Of a stretch of DNA of 64,000 nucleotides, positions 18,699-58,622 are shown in pieces. The position numbers and the translations under genes were made by a program. The stretch comes from an uncultured bacterium (lineage in GTDB: Bacteria; Desulfobacterota; DSM-4660; Desulfatiglandales; JALVMZ01): assembly GCA_965613025.1 (NCBI GenBank), contig CBFDUE010000001.1:80591-144590 (forward strand), given 5' to 3'. The notes beneath the pieces were generated by a model. That model did no database searches and was not told the origin of the DNA. It saw only the letters and a list, made by a program, of their open reading frames with translations. The first letter of the stretch is position 1, and each line of letters opens with the position of its first letter.

Positions 18699-20443
18699 AA
18701 GGAATCCCTGCTTCCCAGGGAATAGTTATCGGAAAGGCTCATGTGATAGATAGGTCAAGTATTCACTTCTTCTATCACTATCTTATAAAAGAGGAGCAGG
18801 TAAAGAGGGAGATTGAACGATTTAAAGAGGCAATTGATAAGACCAGAGAGCAGATAGAGAGATTAAAAGAGAACCTTCCAGAAAACCTGAAAAGCTATTC
18901 CTATATCTTAGATAGCCATCTTCTTATCTTAAAAGATAAGATGTTCATAGATGCTGCAGTGGAGACTATAGAAAAGGATAAGATAAATGCAGAATGGGCC
19001 TTGAGCAGAGCAGTAAAGAATATTGAAAAGGTCTTTGATGAGATAAAAGACGAATACATAAAGGAACGCTACTTAGATGTTAAGGCAGTTGCAGATAGGA
19101 TTATGAGGAATCTAAGCGGATATACAGAGGATGATCTTTCCAATATCACTCAGAGAGTAATTATTGTGGCCCATGATCTATCACCTGTGGATACAAGTGA
19201 GATGGATATCGGTAAGGTAATGGGATTTATTACAGATGTGGGAGGTAAGACCTCCCATACCTCCATCATGGCCCAGGCATTAAATATTCCGGCAGTGGTG
19301 GGCCTTAAGGTTGCTACCATAAGAATAAATGATGGGGATCTTATTATCGTAGATGGATATAGCGGTGAGGTGATCATCTCCCCAGATGATAGCACCATAC
19401 TGGCCTATCAGGAAAAGGAACTGAACTATAAGATTTATGAATCACGGGTATTAAAAGAGAGCAAAAAACCTGCCTTTACATTGGATGGTCACAGAATAAA
19501 TGTCATGGCTAATATAGAATTCTTAGAGGAGGTGGTAACAGCAAAGGACTATGGGGCAGAGGGAATTGGACTCTATAGAACAGAGTTCCATTATCTAAGG
19601 AGTAAGGGGCTTCCAAATGAAGAGGAGCTATTTGAGGATTACAGAGAGGTGGCACAGTTAATCTATCCCTCCTCAGTGGTTATAAGAACCTTAGATCTTG
19701 GAGGAGATAAATTTGCATCCCATATCTCTTTTACTGAAGAGATTAATCCTGCGCTGGGACTAAGAGCCATAAGACTATGTCTACAACAACCTCATATATT
19801 CAAGACCCAGCTAAGGGCGATTCTAAGAGCCAGTGCCTATGGCAATATAAAGCTCATGTTCCCAATGATATCAGGAGTAAAGGAGATAATGGGAGCAAGA
19901 GAGATACTTCAAGAGACATCTCAAGAGCTGGAAAGGGAAGGCATAGAATACGACAAAAGCCTTAAAGTGGGAATTATGATAGAAATCCCTTCTGCTGTGA
20001 TGATAGCAGATATCCTTGCAAGATATGTGGATTTCTTTAGTATAGGAACCAATGACCTTATTCAATATGCACTTGCTATTGATAGGATAAATGAACAGAT
20101 ATCCTTTATGTATCAGCCATATCATCCTTCTCTTATAAGGATGCTCTTTGAGGTGGTGCAGGCCGCCTCAAGACAGGGTATAGAGATATCCCTTTGCGGT
20201 GAGATGGCAGGTGATCCTCTGTGCATACCTCTGCTTTTGGGATTGGGAATTACAGATCTAAGTATGAACCCAGCCAATATTCCAATAGTGAAGAGTCTTA
20301 TAAGGGCAATGTCCATGGAAGATGCAAGGCGGGATCTGGAAAACATAATGGATATGGAAACTGCTGAAGAGGTTAAAGACTATCTATATGATAAGATGAG
20401 TCCCCTACTACCCAAACCTGTTTTGGAGAGACTGAATGGATAA
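18686..20443 (+). CDS. ptsI: Phosphoenolpyruvate-protein phosphotransferase (PTS enzyme I)
   Basis: 585 aa. Phospho-His motif GGKTSHTSIMAQAL. PEP-binding barrel FFSIGTNDLIQY. Confidence 0.9.
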   Translation: MERLKGIPASQGIVIGKAHVIDRSSIHFFYHYLIKEEQVKREIERFKEAIDKTREQIERLKENLPENLKSYSYILDSHLLILKDKMFIDAAVETIEKDKINAEWALSRAVKNIEKVFDEIKDEYIKERYLDVKAVADRIMRNLSGYTEDDLSNITQRVIIVAHDLSPVDTSEMDIGKVMGFITDVGGKTSHTSIMAQALNIPAVVGLKVATIRINDGDLIIVDGYSGEVIISPDDSTILAYQEKELNYKIYESRVLKESKKPAFTLDGHRINVMANIEFLEEVVTAKDYGAEGIGLYRTEFHYLRSKGLPNEEELFEDYREVAQLIYPSSVVIRTLDLGGDKFASHISFTEEINPALGLRAIRLCLQQPHIFKTQLRAILRASAYGNIKLMFPMISGVKEIMGAREILQETSQELEREGIEYDKSLKVGIMIEIPSAVMIADILARYVDFFSIGTNDLIQYALAIDRINEQISFMYQPYHPSLIRMLFEVVQAASRQGIEISLCGEMAGDPLCIPLLLGLGITDLSMNPANIPIVKSLIRAMSMEDARRDLENIMDMETAEEVKDYLYDKMSPLLPKPVLERLNG

Positions 20444-21442: not shown

Positions 21443-21937
21443 ATGGAAGATAAGACACTGATGAGAAGAGCTATTGAACTTATTAATAATTGTTATACAA
21501 TGACACTTGCAGTTTCAAACAAGAGGAAAGCATGGGCAACACCTGTCTATTATCTTTTTCACAAAGGGAATTTTTTCTTTTTCTCATCACCTAAATCCAG
21601 ACATATTGTTGATGGAATGGGTTGTTATGAAGTAGGAGCTTCCATATATCAAGACTCGCATTCCTGGCAAGAGATTAGAGGGATTCAAATGGCAGGAAAA
21701 ATCGAAATGATTAAGAATCCTTTATTAATAAATGAGGTATTTAAAAAATATCTAAAAAAATTTCCAACCACAAAGGAACTTATTCCTCTTTCTGTAAAAG
21801 ATATTACTGCCTTTTTAAAAAATTTTAGGGTCAAACTTTATTGTTTTATACCTATCATCATATATTACTTAGACAATGAGGTATACTTTGGATTCAGAAA
21901 AGAGATTAATCTTAATGAATTTTCATCCTTAAAATAA
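21443..21937 (+). CDS. Possible pyridoxamine-5'-phosphate-oxidase-like (FMN-binding split barrel) protein
   Basis: 164 aa. AIELINNCYTMTLAV...ATPVYYLF...FFFFSSPKSRH resembles the general PNPOx-like pattern. Weak call. Confidence 0.4.
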   Translation: MEDKTLMRRAIELINNCYTMTLAVSNKRKAWATPVYYLFHKGNFFFFSSPKSRHIVDGMGCYEVGASIYQDSHSWQEIRGIQMAGKIEMIKNPLLINEVFKKYLKKFPTTKELIPLSVKDITAFLKNFRVKLYCFIPIIIYYLDNEVYFGFRKEINLNEFSSLK

Positions 21938-22070: not shown

Positions 22071-23717
22071 CTATTTAATAGGTTTTTCTTCCAGCTGTTT
22101 TTTAAGGACCTTTTTGTCAATCTTACCAGAGTCACCCACAGTGGGAAGCTGATCCACCACTTCCAATCTCTCTGGAAGCTTATACATGGCAAGCTTTTTA
22201 GACTTTAAAAAATCTACCATCTCATCAAAGGTGAAAGTCTCACCAGGTTTTGGAACCACAAAGGCACACGCTCTCTCTCCCATCTCTTTATCGGGATACC
22301 CCACGATGGCCACACTTGCCACTTTGGGATGTTCATTTAAAAGACCTTCAATTTCTGCAGGATAGATATTCTGCCCTCCCCTTATTATCATATCCTTGGC
22401 TCTTCCCATAATCAGAAGGCATCCCTGCTCCCATCTGACGATATCCCCAGTGGTTGCCCATCCCTCTGGATCAAAGACCGTGCTGGTTAGCTCCTCATCT
22501 CTGTAATATCCGGCAGGACTATGAGGTCCTCTAAACCAAAGTTGACCTGGTTCCCCCTCTGGAACCTCCTTTCCGTCTTCATCTAAAAGTCTGACTCTGT
22601 TACCTGGAAGCGGCCTTCCTACAGTTCTTCTTCTAAGCTCTGGAGGATCTTCCACCCTGCAACCTGATATGGATCCCACATCCTGGGTTCCAAGGTCACT
22701 GGTAATCACAGCACCAAATGCGGCTTCTGCCTCCTGTGCCAATTGGGGAGATAGATATCCACCCGCAGATCTAATAAATCTAAGTGAACTCATATCATAT
22801 TTATCAACCCCTGCATCCAGCATTCTTACAAGATGAGTTGGCACTACTCCGATTGCAGTGGCCTTTTCCTTTTCAATAAGCTCCAATGCCCCTTCAGGAC
22901 TGAACTCTTCGAGCATCACTGTCTTTGCTCCTACCACAGGAGCTGCAAAATAGGTAAGGGTTCCCGCTGCCCCTCCTGCATGGGGTGCGATGGCCATGGT
23001 GATATCATCCTTGGTTAGGCTCCATATATCCACCCTTGCCTTTGAGGTGCAGAGCCTGGGGGCTATAGGCCATTCCACCAGCTTTGGTAGTCCCGTGGTC
23101 CCTGTGGTAGTGGTGAGGATTGCCACATTCCAAAGGGGGTCCAGCCTTCTTTTTTGTAATTCTTCAAGATCTATGTCCTTTTCTGCCCTTTCCTTTGCCA
23201 TGGTGGTAAGGGAATAGGTATCAGATGGGGCACCTTCTGGAACTGTATCATCAAACAGGAATATGTATTTCAAAGACTTAAATCTCTCTTTTAGCCCCCT
23301 ATACATCTCAAGATAGTTGAATTTTCTGTATATACTTGGAATTACAACAGCAGTTGCCTCTGTTCTTTCGACCATATATTCCAGTTCTCTTTCCCTTAGA
23401 TATGGATATACCGTAAGGGAGATGAGGCCTGCTCTTTCTGCTGCTATTCTGGATAAAAACCCATAAACGCTATTAGGAGATTGGATTATTATTCTTGAAA
23501 ATTTAGGTATTCCCATCTCAACCCAGAGCATAGCGATTGCATCTGCAAGCCTCTTCGCCTCGGCCCAGGTGACCCTGTATCGGGAGTCCACCAGCGCCTC
23601 TCTATCTCCCAGCTCTTTTGCATTTCTTTCATAGAAATCAAAAAAGGTCTCCTGGGTCCAATATCCATCCTTTAAAAATTCATTTACCATCTTCTCTGTA
23701 TATCTTATGGGCTTCAT
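22071..23717 (-). CDS. AMP-forming aryl/alicyclic-acid CoA ligase (EntE/AliA-like adenylating enzyme)
   Basis: 548 aa. The N-terminus (EFLKDGYWTQETFFDFYERNA...) is like EntE and cyclohexanecarboxylate-CoA ligase. AMP-binding motif TTTTGTTGLPKLV, plus GWATTGD and a C-terminal lysine region. Confidence 0.8.
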   Translation of the reverse strand: MKPIRYTEKMVNEFLKDGYWTQETFFDFYERNAKELGDREALVDSRYRVTWAEAKRLADAIAMLWVEMGIPKFSRIIIQSPNSVYGFLSRIAAERAGLISLTVYPYLRERELEYMVERTEATAVVIPSIYRKFNYLEMYRGLKERFKSLKYIFLFDDTVPEGAPSDTYSLTTMAKERAEKDIDLEELQKRRLDPLWNVAILTTTTGTTGLPKLVEWPIAPRLCTSKARVDIWSLTKDDITMAIAPHAGGAAGTLTYFAAPVVGAKTVMLEEFSPEGALELIEKEKATAIGVVPTHLVRMLDAGVDKYDMSSLRFIRSAGGYLSPQLAQEAEAAFGAVITSDLGTQDVGSISGCRVEDPPELRRRTVGRPLPGNRVRLLDEDGKEVPEGEPGQLWFRGPHSPAGYYRDEELTSTVFDPEGWATTGDIVRWEQGCLLIMGRAKDMIIRGGQNIYPAEIEGLLNEHPKVASVAIVGYPDKEMGERACAFVVPKPGETFTFDEMVDFLKSKKLAMYKLPERLEVVDQLPTVGDSGKIDKKVLKKQLEEKPIK

Positions 23718-23744: not shown

Positions 23745-25148
23745 TTAATCAAGGCCAAGCTCCTTCCACCTGCCCTCGATCCTCTTTACAATTTCAGGGT
23801 CAAGTTCTATAGGAATTGGTTTCTCCTTCCATTCATAGGGGATAGTTGCATCAATAAGGAGTCTTCCAGTGATTTCCCTTGCCTCAATGGGTAGAGATGG
23901 GTCAAGGGGGGTAGATCTTCCTCTTCTAATGATCTCACATCTATTAGGTTGAGCCCTGAATGCCAAAGCATATAGGACCCTTGGAATATCCCAAGGATCA
24001 ATATCATCATCAACCACAATTACTGTCTTAAGTCCATAAGCGCCCATCTCTGTGGATATGGCAGCGGTGAGCACCTGATTAGCATGTCCAGGATACATGG
24101 TTTTAACAGATATGATGGCAATAAATCTACCGGCTCCTTCAGGAGGGCAATATACGGCCTTAATCCCTGGAATCTTCATGGCAGTTAGCTGCTGCCAAAG
24201 GGTTGCGCCATAGGTAAGTGCCATGGTCATGTGGGTGTCAGTTACGGCCCTTCCCACGGTTGTTGCCTGAAATATGGGATTATTTCTGAAAGTAACACAC
24301 TTTACCTCAATATAGTTTCGTGGGGTGGTGCCAATTCCTGAATAATAGCCTGTATATTCACCAAAAGGGCCTTCTGGCATCGTCTTTTCAGGATCCACTA
24401 TTCCTTCAACCACAATCTCAGCCGTGGCAGGGACAGGTAGATCACAAGTTTCACATTTTACTACCTCAATGGGCTTCCCCCTTATGGAGCCAGCAAGATC
24501 ATACTCACATTCAAAGGCAGATACTCTGGCCGCGCCCATCAAAAAGAGCAGAGGATCCCCACCAATTACTACTGCCACAGGCATGGGTTTTCCCAATGCC
24601 TGATATTTCTTAAGCATGATATCTGCATGTTTTCCTTTAATAAATTGAGTTCCAAGTGTATTTTTATTTAGCAACTGCAATCTATATGTCCCTAAGTTGA
24701 CCCAATCGCTATCAGGATCTTTTGTCACCACAAAATGGGCAGTTCCAAAATATCTTCCCCCGTCTTTGGGATAGAATTTAGGGACAGGGAACTTGAACAG
24801 ATCCACTTCATCCCCTTCCATCTTGTTCTCCTTACATGGCCCATTATCTACCCAAGCAGGCGGGATCTTCTGCTCATTCTTTTCCACCCACAGTCTCATA
24901 AGATCCACAAGGTTAGAGTCCAATGGAATTCCCATAATAAAAGAGAGTCGCTCAGTGGTAGTATAGACACTAGTTAAAACCGGAGAATTATAGCCCTTAA
25001 CATTCTCAAACAGCAGTGCTGGCCCACCTCTCTCTTCATTGAGTTTGGCAATATGGGAGAGCTCCAGATCCCAGTCTACTTCTGCCTTAATCCTTTTAAG
25101 AAGCCCCCTGCTTTCTGCCTGCTCTATAAACTCCCTCAGGTCCTTCAT
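23745..25148 (-). CDS. UbiD-family (prFMN-dependent) (de)carboxylase
   Basis: 467 aa. MKDLREFIEQAESRGLLKRIKAEVDWDLELSHIAKL...GGPALLFENVKGY is a typical UbiD N-terminus. It lies 27 nt upstream of the ligase gene. Confidence 0.85.
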   Translation of the reverse strand: MKDLREFIEQAESRGLLKRIKAEVDWDLELSHIAKLNEERGGPALLFENVKGYNSPVLTSVYTTTERLSFIMGIPLDSNLVDLMRLWVEKNEQKIPPAWVDNGPCKENKMEGDEVDLFKFPVPKFYPKDGGRYFGTAHFVVTKDPDSDWVNLGTYRLQLLNKNTLGTQFIKGKHADIMLKKYQALGKPMPVAVVIGGDPLLFLMGAARVSAFECEYDLAGSIRGKPIEVVKCETCDLPVPATAEIVVEGIVDPEKTMPEGPFGEYTGYYSGIGTTPRNYIEVKCVTFRNNPIFQATTVGRAVTDTHMTMALTYGATLWQQLTAMKIPGIKAVYCPPEGAGRFIAIISVKTMYPGHANQVLTAAISTEMGAYGLKTVIVVDDDIDPWDIPRVLYALAFRAQPNRCEIIRRGRSTPLDPSLPIEAREITGRLLIDATIPYEWKEKPIPIELDPEIVKRIEGRWKELGLD

Positions 25149-25221
25149 ATATGCCCTCCTTTCTTCAAAAATGATTATACTTTTTGAAATAAAATTTTAT
25201 TGAATTGTCAAAATAAAAAAT

Positions 25222-25250
25222 GTTAATAGCAATTTACAAAAAGTTAATAG
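25222..25250. promoter_or_regulatory. Candidate operator: two GTTAATAG direct repeats 21 nt apart in the UbiD/LysR divergent spacer
   Basis: GTTAATAG at 25222-25229 and 25243-25250. The AT palindrome AATAAAATTTTATT at 25188-25201 is nearby. AT-rich context, so significance is low. Confidence 0.25.
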
Positions 25251-25260
25251 GCAAAAGATC

Positions 25261-26190
25261 ATGATTCTTAATATGAATCAATTAAGGGCATTTTATCTTG
25301 CGGCAAAGCTAAGAAGTATTGCAAAGGCAGCGCAGGAGCTTATGGTAACACCTCCGGCGGTAAGCAAACAGATCAGACAGCTTGAAGAATCCTTGGGGCT
25401 TAAATTACTTTACAGAGATGGGAATTCCATAAAGCTAACGGAGATAGGGAATTCCATATTTAAGAGGAGCAAAGATATATTTGGAAAGATAGAGGAGATG
25501 GAAAGCTACTTTGAGGACCTAACCACTGCAAAGACAGGAGAGCTTAGGATAGGTTGCACACAGACACCTGCAAAGTATATAATGCCAGCGCTGATAGCCA
25601 GATTTAAGGATAACTATCCAGGGATTAAGATAGTGCTGGATCAGGGGACCAGCTCAGAGATGATCCATAATATCTTAAATAATATCAATGAGCTCGCGCT
25701 TATGCGTTATAGGCCCAATGAAAAGAGGCTAAAGGTAAAGGTGATAAGGGAGGAGGAATTGATTCTGATTGCTGCAAGACACAGCAGGCACATAAATACA
25801 AAAGAGATATCCATATCAGAGCTTTCCTACATACCCCTTATTGTCCCCAAGGAAGGTTCAGGGATCAGGGATGCTATCTTTGAATATCTTTCAAAGTTCA
25901 AGATAAGACCCAATGTGGGTATGGAATCAGGAAGTGTGGATCTGATAAAGGAGATGGTTCGTCAGGATAAGGGGGTGAGTTTCCTGGAAAGATATGTGGT
26001 GGAAGAAGAGCTTAAAAGAGGATTTCTTAAGGCAGTGGGGATACTCGAAGGTTCTCCTAAGATTGAACTTGGAGTCGGATACCTTCAAAGGAGACACCTC
26101 TCTCCGCCTGCATGGGCCTTTTTAAGGATGCTTGAAAACCTTAAAAATTCCATCTCCTTAAATTTAGATGAAAAACAGAGGAAGGGATAA
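25261..26190 (+). CDS. LysR-family transcriptional regulator (paralog 1)
   Basis: 309 aa. wHTH N-terminus MNQLRAFYLAAKLRSIAKAAQELMVTPPAVSKQIRQLE. Divergent from the UbiD-ligase operon. Confidence 0.9.
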   Translation: MILNMNQLRAFYLAAKLRSIAKAAQELMVTPPAVSKQIRQLEESLGLKLLYRDGNSIKLTEIGNSIFKRSKDIFGKIEEMESYFEDLTTAKTGELRIGCTQTPAKYIMPALIARFKDNYPGIKIVLDQGTSSEMIHNILNNINELALMRYRPNEKRLKVKVIREEELILIAARHSRHINTKEISISELSYIPLIVPKEGSGIRDAIFEYLSKFKIRPNVGMESGSVDLIKEMVRQDKGVSFLERYVVEEELKRGFLKAVGILEGSPKIELGVGYLQRRHLSPPAWAFLRMLENLKNSISLNLDEKQRKG

Positions 26191-26193
26191 TTT

Positions 26194-27396
26194 ATGAAGA
26201 ATTCAGATAGATTTATAGTGATAATAGGAACATTTGATAGCAAAGGCAGAGAACACCAATTTTTAAAAGAGGCCGTGGAAAAGAGAGGATTTAAAACCTA
26301 CAGCATAAATGTGGGAACAGGTGCACCTTCTACCTTTCCATGTGATAGGGATCTATTTGAAGAACTGTTTAGGAAAAGACCACAAGATCGGGATCTTGCA
26401 ATAAAAAAGAGTATGGAGAAGGCCATAGAGATCCTAAAAGACCTCCAAAAAGAGCAGAGAATTGCCGGGATTATATCCGCTGGAGGAGGAACTGGAACCC
26501 ATATTTCCACAACCATTATGAGTTCCTTACCTGTAGGAGTTCCCAAAGTTATGGTATCCACAGTGGCATCTAAAAATATGAAAGAGATAGTGGGCACAAA
26601 GGACATAACCATGATACACAGTGTGACTGACATACTGGGTATAAACAGTATTCTGGGAAGGATCTTGGATATGGCAGCAGGCGCAGTCTGTGGAATGGCT
26701 GAGCCCAAATGGAATCCCAGATCAGATAAAAAAAGGATTGCGCTTACCATGTTTGGATTTATAGATAGTGGTGCTCATAAGATAAAGGATTGTCTGGAAG
26801 ATATGGAATATGAGGTGGTGGCGTTTCATGCAAATGGAACAGGTGGAATGGCCATGGAAGCACTAGCAAGGGATGGGTTTTTTGATGCCATCTTAGATCT
26901 TGCTACCCATGAGCTTGCTGATGAGCTATTGAAAGGTTATTGTAGTGGCATAGGGCCAGAGAGATTAGATCCTCCCTCAGAAAATCCTATACCAAGGCTT
27001 GTGGTTCCAGGGGGGTTAGATTGTGCTGTGCTTGAATTTACAAGGAAAAATATCCCTTCCATATACAGAGATAGAAAGATATTTTTCTATGATTTTAGAT
27101 CTGGAATCAGATTAAATGAAGATGAGACAAGGGCTGTGGCACAATGGCTTTCAGAAAAATTGAACAAGGCTCCCAATCACACTAAGATTCTTATTCCATT
27201 AAAAGGATGGTCAGAGGCGGATCGTGAAGGAGGCCCATTATATGATCCCAAGATGAGGGATATATTCATCAGCACGCTTAAAGAGAGGCTAAATCCAGTA
27301 ATTGAGATAATTGAGGTTGAATTTCATATAAATGATGATGGATTTGCTCGCCTTGCATCTGATATTATGATCCATATGATGGAAGGGAAGAGATGA
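26194..27396 (+). CDS. UPF0261 family protein (Tm-1-like ATP-binding domain), copy 1
   Basis: 400 aa. FIVIIGTFDSKGREHQFLKEAVEKRG..., GIISAGGGTGTHIST and PKVMVSTVAS fit my memory of UPF0261/PF06792. It starts 3 nt after LysR-1 and overlaps LysR-2 by ATGA. Confidence 0.7.
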   Translation: MKNSDRFIVIIGTFDSKGREHQFLKEAVEKRGFKTYSINVGTGAPSTFPCDRDLFEELFRKRPQDRDLAIKKSMEKAIEILKDLQKEQRIAGIISAGGGTGTHISTTIMSSLPVGVPKVMVSTVASKNMKEIVGTKDITMIHSVTDILGINSILGRILDMAAGAVCGMAEPKWNPRSDKKRIALTMFGFIDSGAHKIKDCLEDMEYEVVAFHANGTGGMAMEALARDGFFDAILDLATHELADELLKGYCSGIGPERLDPPSENPIPRLVVPGGLDCAVLEFTRKNIPSIYRDRKIFFYDFRSGIRLNEDETRAVAQWLSEKLNKAPNHTKILIPLKGWSEADREGGPLYDPKMRDIFISTLKERLNPVIEIIEVEFHINDDGFARLASDIMIHMMEGKR

Positions 27397-28298
27397 TAAA
27401 TCTGAATCAGCTTAGAGCATTTTATTGGAGCGCAAGGCATCTAAGCTTTACTAAGGCTGCAAAAGAACTATATGTATCTCAGCCTGCCATTACCACACAG
27501 ATCAGGCTCTTTGAGAAAGATCTGCAACTACAGCTTTTTAGAAGAAAGAGAGGAGGGAAGCTAATTCTTACAAGGGAAGGTGCGAGGCTATTTGAGTATG
27601 CGAAAAAGATATTTGAATATGAAGAGAGGCTGGAAGAGGTGATTGAAGATATAAGAAAATTAAAAGATAGAATTCTTCATATTGGAAGCGGAAGGAGCTA
27701 TGCCCATTATTTTGTTCCTTCCCTTATAGAATATTTCCATAAGGACCATCCTGAAATAAAGATAAAGGTTGAGGAAGGGAATTCACAAGATCTCATAAAT
27801 GGCCTCATTGAGATGAAAAATGAGGTGGCAATAGTATCTAAGGTGCTCGAACTTCCTGATATTAGATATGAGCTATTTAGTATGAAGGAGATCATTCCCA
27901 TTGTTCATATTTCACATCCCCTATTGAAGAAGAGATTCGTTAGCTTTCATGAGCTGGCACAAGAACCTATAATAATGAAAGAATCAGGGTCTGGGACAAG
28001 ATGGGTTGTGGAGGACCTTTTTAAGAGATATGGCTATGTGCCAAAGATAATAATGGAGGCAAGTGATGTGGAGATCATTAAGAGCATGGTGGAGCAGGGA
28101 AATGGGATTTCCTTTTTATTGTATGAGGCAGTAAAGAAAGATATCCAAAATAAGAGGATTGCAAGACTTCCCCTTAAAGGGCAAAAGATATATCTGGATA
28201 TAACCATTGCCTACCTCAAGGATCAGATTACCTTTCCTACCAAAGCGTTTCTTGACTGTATTAAAAGGATAAAAGAGGTCTCTGATTTCCATGTTTAA
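27393..28298 (+). CDS. LysR-family transcriptional regulator (paralog 2)
   Basis: 301 aa. MINLNQLRAFYWSARHLSFTKAAKELYVSQPAITTQIRLFE. Its start overlaps the UPF0261 stop (ATGA, 27393-27396). Confidence 0.9.
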   Translation: MINLNQLRAFYWSARHLSFTKAAKELYVSQPAITTQIRLFEKDLQLQLFRRKRGGKLILTREGARLFEYAKKIFEYEERLEEVIEDIRKLKDRILHIGSGRSYAHYFVPSLIEYFHKDHPEIKIKVEEGNSQDLINGLIEMKNEVAIVSKVLELPDIRYELFSMKEIIPIVHISHPLLKKRFVSFHELAQEPIIMKESGSGTRWVVEDLFKRYGYVPKIIMEASDVEIIKSMVEQGNGISFLLYEAVKKDIQNKRIARLPLKGQKIYLDITIAYLKDQITFPTKAFLDCIKRIKEVSDFHV

Positions 28299-28427: not shown

Positions 28428-30647
28428 ATGGAAAGGGAATATAAAGATGCAGAGGTAAAGAGATCCATGTGTTTCTGGTGCAAGCCCAGATGTATTTTGG
28501 ATGTGTATGTTAAGGATGGAAGGCTGCTTGGTGTAAGCAAATCCCCTATAAAAGGATGTCCCAGATGGAAGATAGCAAAGGAGATATTTTATAGTCCTAC
28601 CAGAACCACCTTTCCTATGAAGAGAGTTGGAGAGAGAGGAGAAAATAGATGGAAACAGATATCCTGGGATCAGGCCTTAGATGAGATAGCGGAGAGGCTT
28701 TCATCCATAAGGGATAGATATGGTGCAGAGGCTGTGGCACATCAGCACGGAACCAGCAGATCTTATGAAGAACTCCGAACTCGCTTTTTCAACCTCTTTG
28801 GAAGTCCAAATCACTTCGGCCAGGCACACATCTGTCATGGAAATTCCGCAGTGGTGGCATGTATGGTGTTGGGATGGTGGCCATATTGGATGAATGTGGA
28901 AAAGCTGGAGAAGGCAAATTGTATCTTCTTTGTAGGTCGAAATCCTATTCCGAGTCATCAGACAATAAGGGATGGCGTAGAGCAGGCCAGGAAGAGGGGG
29001 GCGACAGTTATTGTGGCAGATCCCAGACCATCTGATATAGTGAAGCATGCAGACATCTGGTTGAGATTGAGACCAGGTACAGATGCTGCACTTCTGCTTT
29101 CAATGATGAATGTAATTGTGAACGAGGATCTTTATGATAAAGAGTTTGTAAATAATTGGACATATGGTTTTGATAAGTTAAGCGATAGGCTAAAGGAATA
29201 TCCCCCAAGTAGAGGTGCTGAGATAACTGGTTTAAAAGAAGAAGATATTATAAAGGCAGCCAGGATTTATGCAACAAAAAGACCCTCATGTATGATGGAA
29301 GGAATGGGTGTTGCACATCAGCCCAATTCTCTAAATGCGCTACTCTGTCGCTATCTTATGCCTGCTTTAGTTGGCATGATAGATGTGGAAGGGGGAGAGG
29401 AGCTAATGGGCCCAGCTCCCATAATTACAGAACATGAGATTGAGCTTCCCGATATCCTTCCTGCTGAGCAGGCACAAAAAATGATAGGAAGTCAATATAG
29501 GCTATATTCCCATGAGGGATATGAGCTGATCCAGAAAAATGTGGAAAGGGTATGGGGTAAAAGATGTGATCTTCAGGTGTATATGAGATGTGCATCTGCC
29601 CCCCTTATCTTTCATGCGATGGCATATGGGGAGCCCTACCCTATAAAGGGTCTGATATGTGTCGCATGTAATCCCATGCTTACCATGCCAAATATAAAAC
29701 TGGTATATAAGGCATTAAAAAATTTAGAGCTTTTAGTGGTAGTGGATAAGGTCTGGACTCCCACTGCTCAGCTTGCAGACTATGTGCTACCAGCAGCAGA
29801 CTGGTTAGAGAGGGATTTTATATTTAATTACCATAATACCACTCCATTGATTATTGCAGGAGAGGCGGCCCTTCCAAAGACCATCACAGGGGAGTATGAC
29901 AGAAGGGATGATTTTGACTTCTGGAGAGGATTGGGAATAAGGCTTGGACAAAAGGAATATTGGCCTTGGGAAAGTGTTCGGGAATATTATGATTATAGAC
30001 TAAGGCCCATAGGACTGAGTTTTAAAGAGCTGGTTCAAATGGGCAAGTGGTTTCCTGAAAAGAGAGAATTTAAAAAATACATAAATAAAGGTTTTGGAAC
30101 ACCTACGGGCAAGGTGGAATTCTATTCTACAATACTAGAAAAACTGGGGTATGATCCACTTCCCAAGTTTGAGGAACCACCTGAAAGTCCCATAAGCAGT
30201 CCAGAACTTGCGAAGGAATATCCTCTTATTCTTATTACAGGTGGTAGATTTTTACCCTATTTCCATTCAGAATTCAGGAATATCCAGACCTTCAGAAAGG
30301 CCTATCCCTATCCCCAGGTGGAGATACATCCTGAAACTGCTAAAAACTATGGAATAGAAGAGGGAGACTGGGTCTGGATTGAGACACCACGAGGTAGGAT
30401 AGTTCAGAGATGCAGATTGGTGGACGAGATAGACCCAAAAGTTGTCCATGCCCAGCATGGCTGGTGGTATCCTGAACTTCCTCCAGAGGAGCCTTGGCTT
30501 CATGGAGTCTGGATATCCAATGTGAATGTGCTGACTGAAAAGGATCCAGATAAGGGTATAGATAAGGCATTAGGATCTTGGCCACTCAGGACCATGCTAT
30601 GCAGGATATATAAGGCCCGGGTATCAGATATTCCATTATTTTATTAA
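28428..30647 (+). CDS. Cytoplasmic bis-MGD (Mo/W) enzyme of the acetylene-hydratase-like clade, unknown substrate
   Basis: 739 aa. N-terminal [4Fe-4S] motif C15-x2-C18-x3-C22...C44 and no twin-arginine signal. Long stretches match my recollection of Pelobacter acetylenicus acetylene hydratase (RWKQISWDQALDEIAERL; ADIWLRLRPGTDAALLLSMMNVIVNEDLYDKEFVNNW; TPTAQLADYVLPAADWLER; GKVEFYSTILEKLGYDPLP...PELAKEYPLILITG). The metal-ligand Cys (C136 in HICHGNS) is conserved, but the catalytic Asp after the second Cys is Lys19. Confidence 0.75.
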   Translation: MEREYKDAEVKRSMCFWCKPRCILDVYVKDGRLLGVSKSPIKGCPRWKIAKEIFYSPTRTTFPMKRVGERGENRWKQISWDQALDEIAERLSSIRDRYGAEAVAHQHGTSRSYEELRTRFFNLFGSPNHFGQAHICHGNSAVVACMVLGWWPYWMNVEKLEKANCIFFVGRNPIPSHQTIRDGVEQARKRGATVIVADPRPSDIVKHADIWLRLRPGTDAALLLSMMNVIVNEDLYDKEFVNNWTYGFDKLSDRLKEYPPSRGAEITGLKEEDIIKAARIYATKRPSCMMEGMGVAHQPNSLNALLCRYLMPALVGMIDVEGGEELMGPAPIITEHEIELPDILPAEQAQKMIGSQYRLYSHEGYELIQKNVERVWGKRCDLQVYMRCASAPLIFHAMAYGEPYPIKGLICVACNPMLTMPNIKLVYKALKNLELLVVVDKVWTPTAQLADYVLPAADWLERDFIFNYHNTTPLIIAGEAALPKTITGEYDRRDDFDFWRGLGIRLGQKEYWPWESVREYYDYRLRPIGLSFKELVQMGKWFPEKREFKKYINKGFGTPTGKVEFYSTILEKLGYDPLPKFEEPPESPISSPELAKEYPLILITGGRFLPYFHSEFRNIQTFRKAYPYPQVEIHPETAKNYGIEEGDWVWIETPRGRIVQRCRLVDEIDPKVVHAQHGWWYPELPPEEPWLHGVWISNVNVLTEKDPDKGIDKALGSWPLRTMLCRIYKARVSDIPLFY

Positions 30648-31606
30648 GGGATGGAAACGGCAGGGAGGTTATTATCTAAATAGGATATAAGTTCACGAAT
30701 GCCATAGCCAGGTCTGAGTCCCTGGGCCATCTGTTTTAGCATTTCTAAGAATCTGGTTGCAGCAATAGAGAGGGGTTGGGTCTTTAGATAGGCAATGGAT
30801 ATATCTAAAAACAGCCTTTTACCCTCTAGGGGTCTGCTCTTTAAGACCCCTTTTTTTAACTCCTTATAAACTGCATCTTTCACCACAAAGGATATCCCAT
30901 TTCCTTGCTTTACAAGCTGTTTTATAAACTCAGTGTTACTGGTTTCCATAAGTATATTAGGGGTTATCCCTTTTTCGCTAAAGAGCCTGTCCACAATCTT
31001 TCTGGTTCCTGAACCTTCCTCCTTCATAATCAGGGGATAATCCATAAGCTCTTCAATCGATACCTCCTTTTCCTTTGTAAGAGGATGTCCTGGAGGAAGT
31101 ATAAGGATCAACTCTTCATGGGCAAAAGGGATGACCTCGATATCAGGATAGTTTTCAACCATTGCAATTATCCCAATCTCATTTTTTAAATCAAGGAGAC
31201 TGAGAAGGATATCTTTTGAGCTTCCTTCATTTAGAAAGATCTTTATCCCTGGATATCTACATCTAAAGTTCTGAACAATGTATGGCATAAAAAACCTGGC
31301 ATATGTTTTGGTGGTTCCTATTCTTAGAAGCCCTCTTTTTAACTTTTGAAGCTCTTCAATGGTATTTTCAATCTCTCTTTCAAATTCAAATACCTTTTTT
31401 GCAAGGTCAAAGAGAACCCTTCCTTCATCAGTAAGATGAATCCTTCTGCCCCTCTTTTTAAATAGCTTAAAACCACAGAATTTTTCAAATATCTTCAATT
31501 GGGCTGTAACAGCAGGCTGGGTAATAAAGAGATTTTTAGCGGCCTTGGTGCAGCTCATATACCTTGCGGTTTCATAAAAGATCCTGAGATGATTAAAGTT
31601 GATCAT
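30644..31606 (-). CDS. LysR-family transcriptional regulator (paralog 3)
   Basis: 320 aa. MINFNHLRIFYETARYMSCTKAAKNLFITQPAVTAQLKIFE, closest to paralog 2. Its stop codon overlaps the stop of the convergent bis-MGD gene. Divergent from the Pps-like operon. Confidence 0.9.
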   Translation of the reverse strand: MINFNHLRIFYETARYMSCTKAAKNLFITQPAVTAQLKIFEKFCGFKLFKKRGRRIHLTDEGRVLFDLAKKVFEFEREIENTIEELQKLKRGLLRIGTTKTYARFFMPYIVQNFRCRYPGIKIFLNEGSSKDILLSLLDLKNEIGIIAMVENYPDIEVIPFAHEELILILPPGHPLTKEKEVSIEELMDYPLIMKEEGSGTRKIVDRLFSEKGITPNILMETSNTEFIKQLVKQGNGISFVVKDAVYKELKKGVLKSRPLEGKRLFLDISIAYLKTQPLSIAATRFLEMLKQMAQGLRPGYGIRELISYLDNNLPAVSIP

Positions 31607-31822: not shown

Positions 31823-33676
31823 ATGAAAGAAAGAGGCAAATTCCCTGACCCCCACGAATTTAAAACTCCCCCAGAGCTGGATGGATGGGAGGAGATGTAT
31901 CCTTCCCATTACCTCTTTTCAAAGGACAGGGAGGAGTGGGAAAAGAGACAATTCTGGTATCAGGATAAGATCCATGATCCTGAGCCCTTGCCTCCTTTAG
32001 ATCTCATATTTCAAGAGGCATGGCAGATATCCCTTTCTCAGTATACCACAAGGGTATTCTGTATCCCTCCGGCACAGGGAATAGCACAGCGTATGGTAGG
32101 ATGTTACATGTATATCTGTGCTATAAACCCTCCACCAGAAGAGGTAATCGGTAAAAAGGCTCAGCTATTTGAAAAGAGGGTATTTCATGTCTTTAAGAAC
32201 TATGATGAGCTGTGGGACAAGTGGTTAGAGAAGTTCAAGAAATTGGGAGAGGAGATGGACAGCCTCCCTGTTCCCAAAGAGTTGCCTGAATTTGTTCCAG
32301 AAGATCAGGTCCTTCCTGCTCCCACTGGCTGCTATGTATCCTACGACCTTATGGAGGCATTTGATAAACTGGTAAATATGATGTTTAAGGGATGGCAATA
32401 TCACTTTGAAATGCTCAATCTCTCCTATCTTGCATACCTTATGTTTGCAGATGTGGCCAGAAGGCTCTTCCCTGGAATTAGTGAAAGTGCCATAGGAAAG
32501 ATGGTGGCAGGTGCCTATGTTGCCATGTTTAAACCAGAAGAAGAGCTATGCAGGCTCTCCCGTCTTGCCACATCCCTTAAAGGTGTCGCTGATATATTGA
32601 AATCAGACATGAAAGTGGAAGAGAAGATCTCTCAGCTTCAGCAGAGTGATGATGGAAAACAGTGGCTTGAGGAATATGAAAAGGCAAAGGATCCATGGTT
32701 CTATGTTTCCAATGGAAGCGGATGGTTTCATTATGAAGGAAGCTGGATCACACATCCTGAAATCCCCTTTGGCTATATCAAGAGCTACATAGAGAGATTG
32801 GGAAAAGGTGAAAAGATAGAAAGATCACTGGAAGATATAGAAAAGGAAAGGGAAAGGGTGCTGGAGGAGTATAGAAAACTCATAAAGAATGAGGAAGATA
32901 GAAAATCTTTTGATGACTCATACAATATCATAAGGACCATATATCGATTTGCAGAGGATCATCTGTTCTGGGTTGAGCACTGGTTCCACACCATCTGGTT
33001 TAAGAAGGTCAGGGAATTTGGCCAGCTACTTGTAAAATATGACATGTTAAATGAGGTGGACGATATCTTTATGTTCAACAGGTATGAGATCCCACAGCTA
33101 CTCACTGAGCTTTCCACTGCCTGGGCACTTGGAGTGGATGTTCCTGTAAGAGCAAGCTACTATAAAGGAAAGGCGGAAAAGAGAAGGAGGATCCTGGAAG
33201 CTGCCAGGCAATGGAATCCACCGCCTGCCCTGGGTGTTCCACCTGAAGAGGTGGCAGAACCTTTCACTGTGATGCTATGGGGAATCACGACAGAGAAAGT
33301 AAAGGAATGGCTAAAAGGTGTGGAAGTTCCTGAAGGTGAAGAGGTAAGTGAACTTAAGGGATTTGCGTCCTCCTCTGGTGTTACAGAAGGAAAGGCAAGG
33401 GTGCTCAAGTCCTTAGCAGATCTGGACAAACTTCAGGCAGGAGAGATTATGGTATGTCCTACCACTAACCCATCCTGGGCACCGGTATTTACAAAGATAA
33501 AGGCAGCTGTGACAGACATAGGGGGGCTTACAAGCCATGCTGCTATTGTGTGTCGTGAATATGGGCTTCCAGCTGTTACAGGCTGTGGGATTGCCACATC
33601 TGTTATAAAGACAGGAGATATCATAAAAGTAAATGGTGATGAAGGAGTGGTAACTATTTTGAAGAGAGCCGAGTAG
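31823..33676 (+). CDS. PpsA-like subunit: PEP-utilising-enzyme swivel phospho-His domain protein (phenylphosphate-synthase alpha-like)
   Basis: 617 aa (about 70 kDa). The C-terminus GEIMVCPTTNPSWAPVFTKIKAAVTDIGGLTSHAAIVCREYGLPAV carries the catalytic His (His572, codon 33536-33538). No ATP-grasp/PPDK_N domain in this chain. Confidence 0.7.
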   Translation: MKERGKFPDPHEFKTPPELDGWEEMYPSHYLFSKDREEWEKRQFWYQDKIHDPEPLPPLDLIFQEAWQISLSQYTTRVFCIPPAQGIAQRMVGCYMYICAINPPPEEVIGKKAQLFEKRVFHVFKNYDELWDKWLEKFKKLGEEMDSLPVPKELPEFVPEDQVLPAPTGCYVSYDLMEAFDKLVNMMFKGWQYHFEMLNLSYLAYLMFADVARRLFPGISESAIGKMVAGAYVAMFKPEEELCRLSRLATSLKGVADILKSDMKVEEKISQLQQSDDGKQWLEEYEKAKDPWFYVSNGSGWFHYEGSWITHPEIPFGYIKSYIERLGKGEKIERSLEDIEKERERVLEEYRKLIKNEEDRKSFDDSYNIIRTIYRFAEDHLFWVEHWFHTIWFKKVREFGQLLVKYDMLNEVDDIFMFNRYEIPQLLTELSTAWALGVDVPVRASYYKGKAEKRRRILEAARQWNPPPALGVPPEEVAEPFTVMLWGITTEKVKEWLKGVEVPEGEEVSELKGFASSSGVTEGKARVLKSLADLDKLQAGEIMVCPTTNPSWAPVFTKIKAAVTDIGGLTSHAAIVCREYGLPAVTGCGIATSVIKTGDIIKVNGDEGVVTILKRAE

Positions 33677-33691: not shown

Positions 33692-34759
33692 ATGGAATAT
33701 GTAAAGGACTTTAAGGAACTTCGCAGGGATTCAATTCTTGAAGCAGGGGGGAAAAATGCATCTCTTGGAGAGATGATAGGAGCGGGTATCAGGGTCCCCC
33801 CTGGTTTTGCTGTTACCACAAAGGCATATCTGGATTTTTTGGAGAAGGGCGGAATCAGGGATGAAATATTTTCCATATTATCACAGATTTCCCCTGAAGA
33901 TGTGGAAGATCTCAACAATAAAAGCCTGAAGATAAGGGATCATATAAGATCCATAGATATTCCACAGGAAATAAAGAGTGCTATAGAAAAAAGATATGTA
34001 GATCTCTGCGATGTATGTGGTGTGGAGGATCTTCCGGTGGCAGTGCGTTCCAGTGCCACTGCAGAGGATCTTCCCACTGCAAGCTTTGCAGGGCAGCAGG
34101 AGACATATCTCTGGATCAGGGGGGTAGAAGAGGTGGCATCTAAGGTGAGGGACTGCTGGGCCAGCCTCTTTACTCCCCGTGCTATAAGTTACAGGATAAA
34201 GAACAGGTTTTCCCATGAAAAGGTCTTAATCAGCGTGGGTGTTCAAAAGATGGTAAATTCAAGGACCGCTGGCGTAATGTTTACTCTTAACCCTATAGAT
34301 GGGGATCTATCCAAGGTGGTGATTGAAGGTAGCTGGGGATTGGGTGAAAGTGTGGTCTCTGGTTCAGTTACTCCTGATAAATTCGTGGTGGACAAGGTGG
34401 TGCTTGAGATAACAGAGAGAACCATATCCAGAAAACATATACAGTGTGTATATGATCCTTTGGAGGGAAAAGTGGTGGAGAAGGATATGGAAGAGGATAT
34501 GCAAAATATGTGCTGTCTTCAGGACGAAGAGATCAAGGAGCTGGTTAAGATGGCAAAGAGGATTGAAGATCACTATGGCACTCCCATGGACATAGAATGG
34601 GCAATAGACAATGATCTGGAATTCCCAGAGAATATCTTTATTGTCCAGGCAAGGCCGGAAACAGTGTGGAGTCAGAAGAAAAAGGGCCCCGTGATCGGTA
34701 AAAAGAGCGGATTTGAACTTCTTATGGAGCAGGCAATGAAGAGGATAAAACTGTCTTGA
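33692..34759 (+). CDS. PpsB-like subunit: PPDK_N ATP-grasp (nucleotide-binding) protein
   Basis: 355 aa (about 40 kDa). GGKNASLGEMIGAGIRVPPGFAVTT and VAVRSSATAEDLPTASFAGQQETYL are PEP synthase/PPDK N-terminal domain motifs. Confidence 0.7.
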   Translation: MEYVKDFKELRRDSILEAGGKNASLGEMIGAGIRVPPGFAVTTKAYLDFLEKGGIRDEIFSILSQISPEDVEDLNNKSLKIRDHIRSIDIPQEIKSAIEKRYVDLCDVCGVEDLPVAVRSSATAEDLPTASFAGQQETYLWIRGVEEVASKVRDCWASLFTPRAISYRIKNRFSHEKVLISVGVQKMVNSRTAGVMFTLNPIDGDLSKVVIEGSWGLGESVVSGSVTPDKFVVDKVVLEITERTISRKHIQCVYDPLEGKVVEKDMEEDMQNMCCLQDEEIKELVKMAKRIEDHYGTPMDIEWAIDNDLEFPENIFIVQARPETVWSQKKKGPVIGKKSGFELLMEQAMKRIKLS

Positions 34760-36017: not shown

Positions 36018-36518
36018 ATGGAAAAGGCTGATATCTTAAAAGGAAAAAGGGTTCTTGTTGTTGATGATGAAAAAGACGTACTTAATACTGTAAAGGATAT
36101 CCTTTACATGTGTGAACTTGACCTTGCATCAAGCTTTGAAGAGGCAAAAGAGCGGCTTGAATCAAGACACTATGATTTAGTGGTATTGGATATCATGGGG
36201 GTAGATGGATACAGACTACTTGAGATATCAAAAAGAAAGAATATTCCTGCAGCCATGTTCACTGCCCATGCATTTAGTGCGGATAACCTTAAAAGATCAA
36301 TTAATGAAGGCGCTTGTGCCTATATACCTAAGGAGGAGATGAGTTCCCTTCCAGATTTTCTATCAGATATCTTTAAGGCAATAGAGGAAAGAAAAGATCC
36401 ATGGGAATCATGGAGAGAGAGGCTTCCCTCCTCCTATTTTGAGACAAGATGGGGTGCCGCCTGGAAGGATCAGGACAGAGACTTTTGGGAGAGATTCTGG
36501 TCAAGCAGAAAGAAGTAA
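36018..36518 (+). CDS. Stand-alone response-regulator receiver domain with Trp-rich C-terminal tail
   Basis: 166 aa. Complete acceptor set D16/D17 (VVDDE), D58 (VVLDIMG), T82 (MFTAH) and K105 (YIPKE). The 45-aa tail contains six Trp. No output domain. Confidence 0.8.
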   Translation: MEKADILKGKRVLVVDDEKDVLNTVKDILYMCELDLASSFEEAKERLESRHYDLVVLDIMGVDGYRLLEISKRKNIPAAMFTAHAFSADNLKRSINEGACAYIPKEEMSSLPDFLSDIFKAIEERKDPWESWRERLPSSYFETRWGAAWKDQDRDFWERFWSSRKK

Positions 36519-37860: not shown

Positions 37861-37928
37861 CGTTCTTTATGCTGAACAATAATTTAATCTGTATTTATTA
37901 TTAATTTACAAATATTGCAATATTTTTC

Positions 37929-37976
37929 TTGACAAAAGAAATATCAACTTTTATAGGTCAGTTCATAATAATGAAC
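37929..37976 (+). promoter_or_regulatory. Candidate promoter (TTGACA-17-TATAGG) followed by inverted repeat GTTCAT-AATA-ATGAAC
   Basis: -35 at 37929-37934 and -10 at 37952-37957. The dyad at 37961-37976 lies just before ATG 37981 and is a possible IclR operator. Confidence 0.35.
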
Positions 37977-37980
37977 TAAT

Positions 37981-58617: not shown

Positions 58618-58622
58618 AGCAC

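Follow-up and report, generated by a model that had tools for sequence, protein, structure and literature searches.

Is a UPF0261 gene that lies between two LysR genes, on one strand and almost without spacing, part of the regulation of a pathway or part of the pathway itself? The question is raised by a 64,000-nucleotide stretch of DNA from an uncultured bacterium of the Desulfobacterota (contig CBFDUE010000001.1, positions 80,591 to 144,590), referred to below as the window, whose own numbering is used unless another contig is named. Here, lysR-1, the gene of UPF0261 copy 1 and lysR-2 follow one another as a trio, and a second UPF0261 gene (copy 2) lies downstream. A preliminary description of the locus proposed that UPF0261 acts as a sensor or co-regulator instead of a pathway enzyme. 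We consider another reading rather probable, namely that copy 1 is a LysR-regulated catabolic kinase of the MarK family, encoded in a lineage-specific gene order as part of one operon inside a rearranged island of the phe (phenol) type, a type that is widespread in anaerobic phenol degradation.

The three open reading frames of the trio are intact and co-directional. Read directly from the sequence, the first junction is TAA-TTT-ATG, a gap of 3 nt, and the second is an ATGA at 27393-27396, an overlap of 4 nt; both, like the coordinates and strands, are as the preliminary description had them. A Shine-Dalgarno-like GGAAGGGA precedes both junctions. No terminator-like hairpin was found between the genes on the + strand of 25261-28298, and promoter-like matches are not enriched in this region, with 18 in a consensus scan and 18.6 expected in shuffled sequence. 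The single promoter-like match ahead of copy 1 (26163-26191) agrees at 9 of 12 positions, and its -10 hexamer ends 2 nt before the ATG, so that a transcript starting there would be without a ribosome-binding site. From the spacing we infer that the trio is co-transcribed as one small operon, whose genes are apparently translationally coupled. The identical order occurs on three separately assembled contigs, L001 (JGI 3300028891), L002 (SRR14699971) and L124 (ENA ERZ27227314), the last being a 90%-cluster relative of the window, and is therefore not an assembly artefact.

Only in 2025 was a catalytic activity first published for UPF0261, a very large family, and this in an aerobe (PMC12624787); the word uncharacterised, used for it in the preliminary description, is thus outdated. 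The protein concerned, MarK (Saro_1862) of Novosphingobium aromaticivorans, is a stand-alone UPF0261 protein that phosphorylates acetovanillone and other phenolics with ATP, yielding ADP. It is needed for growth on keto-substituted aromatics, and its gene shares an operon with a carboxylase and a phosphatase (PMC12624787). The MarK structure (PDB 9MPY) places K16 at the ATP site, and contact with the substrate is through hydrogen bonds of G195 and H219 to its phenolic oxygen, stacking of H304 against its ring and binding of H348 to its ketone oxygen; H219 is called 'critical', and G195, H219 and H304 are reported to be >90% conserved among MarK homologues (PMC12624787). Within UPF0261, the kinase assay was of MarK E16K only (PMC12624787).

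Both copies in the window are family members, copy 1 scoring 173.5 and 213.4 bits and copy 2 169.1 and 223.1 bits against the two Pfam domains (gathering cut-off, 27). Copy 1 also scores 369 against the NCBIfam model NF002674 (cut-off, 335), and copy 2 is likewise above that cut-off. Among sequences in the Protein Data Bank (PDB), copy 1 matches the tomato protein Tm-1 (E = 2e-50) and MarK (9MPY, E = 2e-41); identity to MarK is 28% for copy 1 and 32% for copy 2. An AlphaFold2 model of copy 1 (pLDDT 76, pTM 0.68) consists of two alpha-beta-alpha subdomains. In a Foldseek search of the PDB with this model, Tm-1 chains (E = 2e-29) and 9MPY (E = 4e-26, TM 0.60) are the sole full-length fold relatives, the next full-length matches having E > 5e-4.

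The contact residues were compared using MarK numbering checked against the residues named in PMC12624787; MarK positions 283 and 285, which two alignments place differently, were not used. The ATP-contacting K16 of MarK corresponds to K17 in copy 1 and K13 in copy 2, within an ATP loop that reads D-T-K in MarK (K16) and Tm-1 (K20), D15-S16-K17 in copy 1 and N11-T12-K13 in copy 2. The phenolic-oxygen contacts G195 and H219 correspond to G188 and H212 in copy 1 and to G197 and S221 in copy 2, the ring-stacking H304 to Y299 and D306, and the ketone-contacting H348 to A342 and V349, respectively. From the set of G195, H219 and H304, copy 1 keeps two of three and the third stays aromatic; copy 2 keeps the Gly alone. 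Moreover, K17, G188 and H212 are invariant in 40 of 40 members of the copy-1 subfamily. Judged by alignment, copy 1 keeps the predicted ATP and phenol-hydroxyl contacts and not the acetyl-group contact. Since H348 is retained in neither copy, neither is predicted to be an acetovanillone kinase. We conclude that copy 1 is most likely an ATP-dependent phenolic O-kinase of the MarK/Tm-1 family, with ADP as its product.

These residues bear on the idea put forward in the preliminary description, in which UPF0261 would be a non-catalytic nucleotide- or ligand-binding sensor, copy 1 partnering the flanking LysR proteins and copy 2 the receiver protein encoded behind it. In favour of such a role are Tm-1, which acts through ATP-bridged protein binding, as summarised in PMC12624787, and the tight coupling of the three genes, which would favour stoichiometric co-production. 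It is at odds with the demonstrated role of MarK, an ATP-dependent aromatic kinase needed for catabolism (PMC12624787), and with the invariance in the copy-1 subfamily of the residues that MarK uses to bind ATP and the phenolic oxygen. At the level of the family, UPF0261 now includes, through MarK, a defined catabolic enzyme, an outcome that the preliminary description had itself named as refuting its proposal; for copy 1 itself the same is predicted from its sequence. Together with the gene-order and abundance data given below, this makes a non-catalytic role very unlikely in our view.

On the regulatory side, lysR-1 and ubiD are divergent across a control region of 112 bp, and lysR-3, a third LysR gene of the window, is divergent from ppsA across 216 bp. 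LysR-1 had been presented as an exception to the rule that LysR genes diverge from their targets; with the ubiD-ligase operon, a likely target, beginning 112 bp away on the opposite strand, it is not one. LysR-1 is 31% identical to LysR-2 and 35% to LysR-3. A metagenome scan returned 34 loci with LysR-1 relatives (52-69% identity), and in 10 of these a UPF0261 gene adjoins the regulator gene. Seven of the pairs are divergent, with UPF0261 on the - strand and LysR on the + strand, and three are co-directional, with LysR followed about 107 nt on by a MarK-type UPF0261 gene. Two further relatives are divergent from ubiD or ppsA, and L119 has exactly the ubiD|lysR layout of the window. In three loci (L100, L114, L116) the LysR-UPF0261 pair is an isolated two-gene module among unrelated genes (ExbB/ExbD/TonB, CysRS and others).

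The control region contains TTAATAGCAATTTA at 25223-25236, a dyad of the TTAAT-N4-ATTAA type that represents the predicted operator of the LysR-1 subfamily. With up to 2 mismatches, this box occurs in 12 of 18 upstream regions of LysR-1 relatives, the background being 0.016 hits per kb, and an architecture of TTGACA..TTAATAnCAATTAAG..nTnAATAG aligns upstream of the relatives and in the window. Two copies of GTTAATAG (25222-25229 and 25243-25250), 21 bp apart, also lie in the 112-bp region and nowhere else in the 64-kb window; a total of two is what chance would give, and only their position within 29 bp of each other is of note. Ahead of copy-1-type genes in other genomes, 4 weak AT-rich matches to the operator were found in 73 upstream regions, with no clear enrichment. 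Where LysR-1 relatives adjoin a UPF0261 gene they are mostly divergent from it, and the relatives have the predicted operator in common; the arrangement is that of a regulator and its target, and the LysR-1 family appears to comprise regulators dedicated to UPF0261, pps and ubiD genes.

A compact module around a LysR-1-type regulator and a MarK-type UPF0261 gene was also observed (L113, 5403-9123; also L115 and L117). Its order is a gene for a 143-aa protein that is a PEP-utilizers mobile (phospho-histidine) domain and nothing more (-), a divergent LysR-1-type gene (+), the MarK-type UPF0261 gene (+), a convergent ARMT1-like phosphatase gene (-), and then FAD-oxidase and CCG/Fe-S genes.

We further examined the surroundings of copy-1-type genes in the best 80 of 256 copy 1 relatives (57-64% identical, almost all from Desulfobacterota metagenome-assembled genomes), classifying neighbours by tblastn with the window proteins, open reading frame calling and a LysR hidden Markov model. 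Where enough flanking sequence was present, a co-directional LysR gene adjoined the copy-1-type gene in 0 of 62 loci upstream and 0 of 64 downstream. The co-linear trio is as unusual as the preliminary description held, and the LysR-flanked order is a curiosity of one lineage. A convergent LysR gene lies directly downstream in 10 of 64 loci, and this, with the 10 of 34 loci of LysR-1 relatives, bears out a conserved linkage between LysR and UPF0261. Such adjacency would suit a sensor that partners regulators, but the missing co-directional neighbours count against it, as does the dominant divergent layout, usual for LysR genes beside the genes they control. Furthermore, the conserved neighbours are enzymes: within the available flank, PpsA/B, UbiD, UbiX, a CoA ligase or a molybdenum/tungsten (Mo/W) enzyme is encoded in 39 of 80 loci.

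Two arrays recur. The first consists of UPF0261 (+), a LysR-3 orthologue (-) and a divergent series of PpsA, PpsB, UbiD, receiver (REC) and ligase genes, whose products are 51-84% identical to those of the window. The second reads (flavin-reductase-like)-UPF0261-(ARMT1-like phosphatase)-Mo/W enzyme-LysR(-) and is found in L016, L024, L072 and L081; the order in the window matches it, with LysR-2 filling the phosphatase slot. In Pfam tallies, Flavin_Reduct occurs in 14 of 30 scanned upstream neighbours, and among 32 scanned downstream neighbours 8 are ARMT1-like and 6 are HD phosphohydrolases. The phosphoenolpyruvate (PEP)-hydrolase-like TIM barrel PF09370 is found neither in the tallies of 62 immediate neighbours nor among 40 window proteins scanned with Pfam, and its absence here had been stated correctly at the outset. 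In five loci (L026 4837-7302, L050, L067, L070, L071), a MarK-type paralogue directly follows the copy-1-type gene in tandem. These paralogues are 40-44% identical to MarK and keep all pocket residues; by analogy with MarK, which is a homodimer, the tandem pairs might form heterodimers.

A search that started from copy 2 led to a protein labelled Desulfatiglans anilini, whose contig (L127) carries the published phe cluster. In order, this cluster encodes a 404-aa UPF0261 protein (+) and a 322-aa LysR (-), then, divergently, ppc-beta, a 552-aa ligase, a 403-aa copy-2-type UPF0261 protein (10001-11212) and ubiX, followed by three hcr-like genes, ppsA, ppsB, a 175-aa REC-only protein (19042-19569) and a 443-aa ligase. 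We equated these genes with H567DRAFT_02061 down to 02049 by their position and by the lengths in the proteome table. BLASTP identities to the window proteins are given in Table 1. At the MarK contact positions, copy 1 has the residues of 02061 and copy 2 those of 02057. Counterpart by counterpart, the island of the window matches the D. anilini phe cluster, with its genes in a changed arrangement. The preliminary description had called UPF0261 duplicated in the locus, which is misleading: the copies are 32% identical to each other and represent two old subfamilies, each with a counterpart in D. anilini. A local duplication was rejected, each copy being closer to its own counterpart.

The proteins of the D. 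anilini phe cluster are phenol-induced (PMC6114531; table of PMC7500099). We took peak areas from the raw table of PMC7500099, listed here in the order 4-aminobenzoate, aniline, benzoate and phenol. For the copy-2-type 02057, replicate 1 gives 0, 5.0e7, 5.3e7 and 2.5e9, and replicates 2 and 3 give 4.2e9 and 6.7e8 on phenol and <=3e8 in the other conditions. For the copy-1-type 02061, values are available from replicate 1 only (2.7e8, 8.8e7, 1.3e8 and 1.2e8). The REC-only protein 02050 reaches 1.1e9, 8.8e8, 6.9e8 and 6.0e9 in replicate 1, and 8.1e9 and 3.7e9 on phenol in replicates 2 and 3, compared with 0.5-1.0e9 in the other conditions. A third UPF0261 protein, H567DRAFT_03869 (411 aa), is encoded in the ani (aniline) cluster between Pas-beta and an acyl-CoA synthetase, and was seen only on 4-aminobenzoate and aniline (5.4e9, 6.5e8, 0 and 0). 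The text of the two D. anilini papers (PMC6114531, PMC7500099) does not mention 02057, 02061, 03869 or 02050.

Several points weigh against a LysR-regulated catabolic kinase. The evidence for co-transcription of the trio is the spacing of its genes. The 28% identity of copy 1 to MarK is low, and with H348 lost and Tyr in place of H304 its substrate must differ from that of MarK. With a PpsAB-type phenol dikinase already present in the cluster, a second kinase calls for an explanation. Finally, 02061 is low and roughly equal in the four conditions of its one replicate, unlike a bulk phenol-pathway enzyme. This abundance fits a kinase for another substrate, or a regulatory role, and suggests that phenol is not the main substrate or that the enzyme works at a low level.

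The expression of 02061 would also suit a kinase that generates an inducer. Copy 1 would then be catalytic, present at a low constitutive level, and would turn a phenolic into an aryl phosphate; this ester, and not the phenolic, would serve as the effector of LysR-1, LysR-2 or LysR-3, and the trio would be a sensory module complete in itself. The effector-bound regulators would in turn switch on the ubiD-ligase, Mo/W-enzyme and pps operons. The kinase gene is apparently co-transcribed with two LysR genes in this lineage, LysR-1-type regulators repeatedly adjoin UPF0261, at times in two-gene modules that stand apart from any other catabolic gene, and a copy-1-type gene lies directly beside a cluster LysR gene in 10 of 64 loci. 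In D. anilini, the low and similar level of 02061 (one replicate) contrasts with a 10- to 50-fold induction of the adjacent operon. A divergent layout is, however, equally expected of an ordinary regulated enzyme, the operon-like arrays with flavin-reductase-like, phosphatase and Mo/W genes in many genomes look like a pathway, and constitutive expression was seen in a single replicate. We consider such an inducer-forming kinase unlikely, although it is the main alternative. If it were true, the conserved LysR-UPF0261 pairs of other genomes would represent a switch of the 'enzyme-makes-the-inducer' kind, in wide use for the anaerobic breakdown of aromatics.

The neighbourhoods also bring UbiD into consideration. 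Copy-1-type genes adjoin or overlap ubiX in L044 and L053 and stand beside ubiD in L003, L009, L029 and L040, and a flavin-reductase-like gene is their commonest upstream neighbour, with phosphohydrolase genes common downstream. Instead of activating a substrate, UPF0261 could support UbiD by supplying or maturing prenylated flavin mononucleotide (prFMN), for example by phosphorylating a prenyl alcohol for UbiX or by acting with a flavin reductase. In a second version, it would be a phosphoryl-transfer partner that stands in for the gamma and delta subunits that the phenylphosphate carboxylase lacks, and might work in reverse to gain ATP from phenylphosphate. D. anilini has no obvious ppc-gamma homologue, and the authors who described it raise the question of how the dikinase can be paid for by a sulfate reducer (PMC6114531). 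In addition, ubiX lies next to or near the genes of copy 2 and 02057 in the operon, and the pocket of both proteins is unlike that of MarK. These proposals are drawn from gene context, no family member has such an activity, isolated LysR-UPF0261 modules occur with neither ubiD nor ubiX nearby, and copy 1 retains the phenol-binding Gly and His. We regard such a support role, in one version or the other, as improbable.

For the favoured reading, a MarK-family kinase under LysR control, we propose the following course. A LysR-type promoter/operator within the 112 bp that the trio has in common with the divergent ubiD-ligase operon would drive its transcription; which promoters each LysR controls is likewise predicted. 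Copy 1 would phosphorylate the hydroxyl group of a phenolic compound with ATP, giving ADP; since the ketone contact H348 is missing, this compound would not be acetovanillone. The aryl phosphate may then feed the adjoining UbiD-type carboxylase, the acetylene-hydratase-like Mo/W enzyme, or both. In evolutionary terms, a LysR-1-type regulator gene that is normally divergent from a UPF0261 kinase gene or ubiD would have become co-directional and been joined with the kinase gene in one transcript. LysR-2 would occupy the slot that a phosphatase gene holds between the kinase and Mo/W enzyme genes in several genomes.

The other two regulators fit into known surroundings. The closest relatives of LysR-2 are 315-aa cluster LysRs of Desulfobacterales (about 50% identity), and it is 45% identical to the D. 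anilini LysR 02060. Its relatives adjoin either a 736-aa molybdopterin oxidoreductase with the size and Pfam domains of the acetylene-hydratase-like enzyme (L125) or a pps cluster that already holds a second LysR gene (L126), and LysR-2 itself has no divergent partner. By sequence comparison, LysR-2 is a paralogue of the LysR that accompanies pps/ubiD clusters. LysR-3 is 50-60% identical to the LysR whose gene, in many loci, converges with UPF0261 and diverges from ppsA, and is the counterpart of the D. anilini cluster regulator 02060. On the Desulfobacula contig L126 (7001-8965), two adjacent convergent LysR genes stand ahead of ppsA-ppsB-ubiD-ligase; several LysRs per cluster are therefore not unique to the window. 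On L125 (9006-10520), an IS66 transposase gene adjoins the gene for the 736-aa molybdopterin oxidoreductase, which hints at a route by which such clusters are rearranged.

The window is chromosomal, with MetRS, Ffh, TrmD, SmpB, PtsI and HemC/D flanking the region, and the catabolic island spans about 22-42 kb (Table 1). The island and a second catabolic block together hold PpsA, PpsB, a UbiD-type PpcB, UbiX, an aryl-acid ligase and a 4-hydroxybenzoyl-CoA-reductase-like enzyme, and by this gene content the island is assigned to the known anaerobic phenylphosphate (pps/ppc)-type clusters. In most Desulfobacterota loci that carry them, the PpsA-like proteins are 73-80% and the PpsB-like proteins 64-69% identical to those of the window. 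In the Mo/W enzyme, the four cysteines for FeS and the Cys that ligates the metal are conserved, and the motif reads C-x2-C-K-x2-C. Its Lys stands where acetylene hydratase has an Asp that we take to be catalytic. Orthologues (61-64% identity) lie downstream of copy-1-type UPF0261 in L016, L024, L072 and L081; a truncated 64% match lies upstream in L076, and in L006 and L007 a gene for a 736-aa enzyme of this type is divergent from UPF0261. ARMT1-like phosphatase and flavin-reductase-like genes often accompany the orthologues near copy-1-type genes. The second block also contains two tandem open reading frames of 434 and 435 aa, the 434-aa one being phenylacetate-CoA-ligase-like, and frames of 172 and 287 aa whose sizes would suit the Fer2 and FAD subunits. 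With this block, a route from phenol to benzoyl-CoA would be complete.

Table 1 Features of the window and their counterparts in the Desulfatiglans anilini phe cluster (H567DRAFT numbers, with BLASTP identity).
Feature	Position	Strand	Description	D. anilini counterpart
Open reading frame	21443-21937		164 aa; no Pfam match; island edge; conserved in close relative L124	
Aryl-acid AMP/CoA ligase	22071-23717	-	548 aa; AMP-binding domains	02058 (552 aa), 79%
UbiD-family carboxylase, phenylphosphate carboxylase beta-type	23745-25148	-	TIGR02724 489.6 (cut-off 468.95)	02059 (468 aa), ppc-beta, 74%
Divergent control region	25149-25260		112 bp, between ubiD (-) and lysR-1 (+)	
LysR-1	25261-26190	+	309 aa; HTH_1 + LysR_substrate (Pfam)	
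UPF0261 copy 1	26194-27396	+	400 aa; PF06792 (E = 6e-51) + PF23189 (E = 3e-63)	02061 (404 aa), 53%
LysR-2	27393-28298	+	301 aa; HTH_1 + LysR_substrate (Pfam)	
Acetylene-hydratase-like Mo/W bis-molybdopterin guanine dinucleotide (bis-MGD) enzyme	28428-30647	+	739 aa; PDB 2E7Z, E = 8e-136, full length	
LysR-3	30644-31606	-	320 aa; HTH_1 + LysR_substrate; divergent from ppsA	02060 (322 aa), 55%
ppsA-like dikinase subunit	31823-33676	+	Pfam; ppsA/ppsB pair: PEP-utilizers mobile domain and PPDK_N	02052 (615 aa), Pps-alpha, 64%
ppsB-like dikinase subunit	33692-34759	+	Pfam; ppsA/ppsB pair: PEP-utilizers mobile domain and PPDK_N	02051 (358 aa), Pps-beta, 44%
UPF0261 copy 2	34781-36010	+	409 aa; Pfam; MarK 9MPY E = 8e-58	02057 (403 aa), 61%
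Single-domain receiver protein	36018-36518	+	Response_reg	02050 (175 aa), 53%
UbiX flavin prenyltransferase	36531-37121	+	Flavoprotein/UbiX	02056 (193 aa), 66%
IclR regulator (-), ferredoxin, 91-aa open reading frame, aldehyde:ferredoxin oxidoreductase, ferredoxin	37096-41247	mixed		
Open reading frame	38489-38764		91 aa; no Pfam match; inside island	
Second catabolic block	56218-62605	-	4-hydroxybenzoyl-CoA-reductase-like MoCoBD subunit, 799 aa	

Copy 2 is followed by the receiver gene, as the preliminary description had it, but this pairing is not conserved: receiver orthologues sit after ppsB or ubiD in D. anilini and many Desulfobacterota clusters, and the copy-2 counterpart of D. anilini lies between the ligase gene and ubiX. 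A copy-2-type protein that is abundant (about 2.5e9 area units) and phenol-induced is, moreover, untypical of a regulator, and both observations add to the case against a sensor role. The copy-2 pocket, with Ser for H219 and Asp for H304, is the same in 02057 and in 10 of 10 sampled subfamily relatives. Such a conserved non-MarK pocket in a protein of an induced operon suggests a different substrate or a different reaction for copy 2. The receiver keeps the five canonical residues (D16, D17, D58, T82 and K105), and its last 45 aa or so form a Trp-rich tail. The abundance and phenol induction of 02050 are unusual for a signalling protein, and its abundance raises the question of phosphoryl transfer between the receiver and the phospho-histidine domain of PpsA.

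The trio order is of value mainly as a pointer to a LysR subfamily that has a recognisable predicted operator and would be dedicated to the control of UPF0261 genes. Beyond this, the phenol and aniline clusters of sulfate reducers and related organisms include, as integral members, two distinct and conserved UPF0261 subfamilies, of which one is phenol-induced and the other lies beside a LysR gene. Should they be ADP-forming phenolic kinases or phosphoryl-transfer partners of UbiD, they would bear on how energy-limited anaerobes afford a phenylphosphate synthase that costs two ATP, and on what replaces the missing phenylphosphate carboxylase subunits. A literature search found no papers linking Tm-1-like proteins with phenylphosphate, and the 2026 papers on anaerobic benzene activation that we checked make no mention of a link to genes for UPF0261, LysR, flavin reductase or molybdopterin proteins. 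The lead on UPF0261 in the anaerobic metabolism of phenol merits biochemical study.

Among known systems, MarK is one of the closest to copy 1. Both have the two Pfam domains, the fold of two subdomains, the D-(T/S)-K motif in the ATP loop and the Gly and His of the phenolic oxygen, and both are encoded in clusters that phosphorylate and then carboxylate an aromatic compound. They differ in the pocket, where copy 1 departs from MarK at H304 and H348 and copy 2 at H219 and H304, and in their setting, which is strictly anaerobic with a UbiD/prFMN carboxylase in the window, whereas MarK is paired with the biotin-dependent AcvCDE. Unlike the MarK system, the window also has a PpsAB-type dikinase and places the gene of copy 1 between two LysR genes. 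For PpsAB and the acetovanillone dikinases HpeHI and AcvAB, ATP-dependent phenolic O-phosphorylation ahead of carboxylation is the step that we propose for UPF0261 as well, and genes of the PpsAB type are encoded in the window's own cluster. In contrast to UPF0261, PpsAB-type enzymes have a PEP-synthase-type fold with a phospho-histidine swivel domain, and they yield AMP and phosphate at the expense of two ATP equivalents, whereas MarK-type kinases give ADP. Tm-1, which confers resistance to tomato mosaic virus (ToMV; PDB 3WRV-3WRY), is the best sequence match of copy 1 and resembles it in fold and in the ATP-contact Lys; unlike copy 1, it carries a TIM-barrel domain as a C-terminal fusion and works through binding to a viral helicase.

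The phe cluster of D. anilini has an equal gene set at 44-79% identity, including both UPF0261 subfamilies. There, 02061 is convergent with a single LysR gene and lies outside the induced operon; the window, in contrast, has three LysR genes, the ubiD-ligase pair on the other side and an inserted acetylene-hydratase-like gene. In classical LysR systems such as BenM/CatM, CatR and ClcR, the target operon is divergent from the regulator gene. LysR-1 and LysR-3 conform to this, each having a divergent catabolic operon on the far side of a short intergenic stretch with a predicted dyad operator, as do the LysR-1 relatives that have UPF0261 as the divergent gene. The window departs from them in having an enzyme gene and a second LysR gene apparently coupled downstream of a regulator gene. 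The transcript of a LysR regulator is typically autorepressed, and an enzyme whose gene is coupled behind lysR-1 would share that transcript. Set against these systems, three features of the locus are new: two conserved UPF0261 subfamilies that are integral to anaerobic phenylphosphate-type clusters, a dedicated LysR subfamily with a recognisable predicted operator that accompanies UPF0261 genes, and, in this lineage, a putative kinase gene with a LysR gene on either side, to both of which it is apparently coupled.

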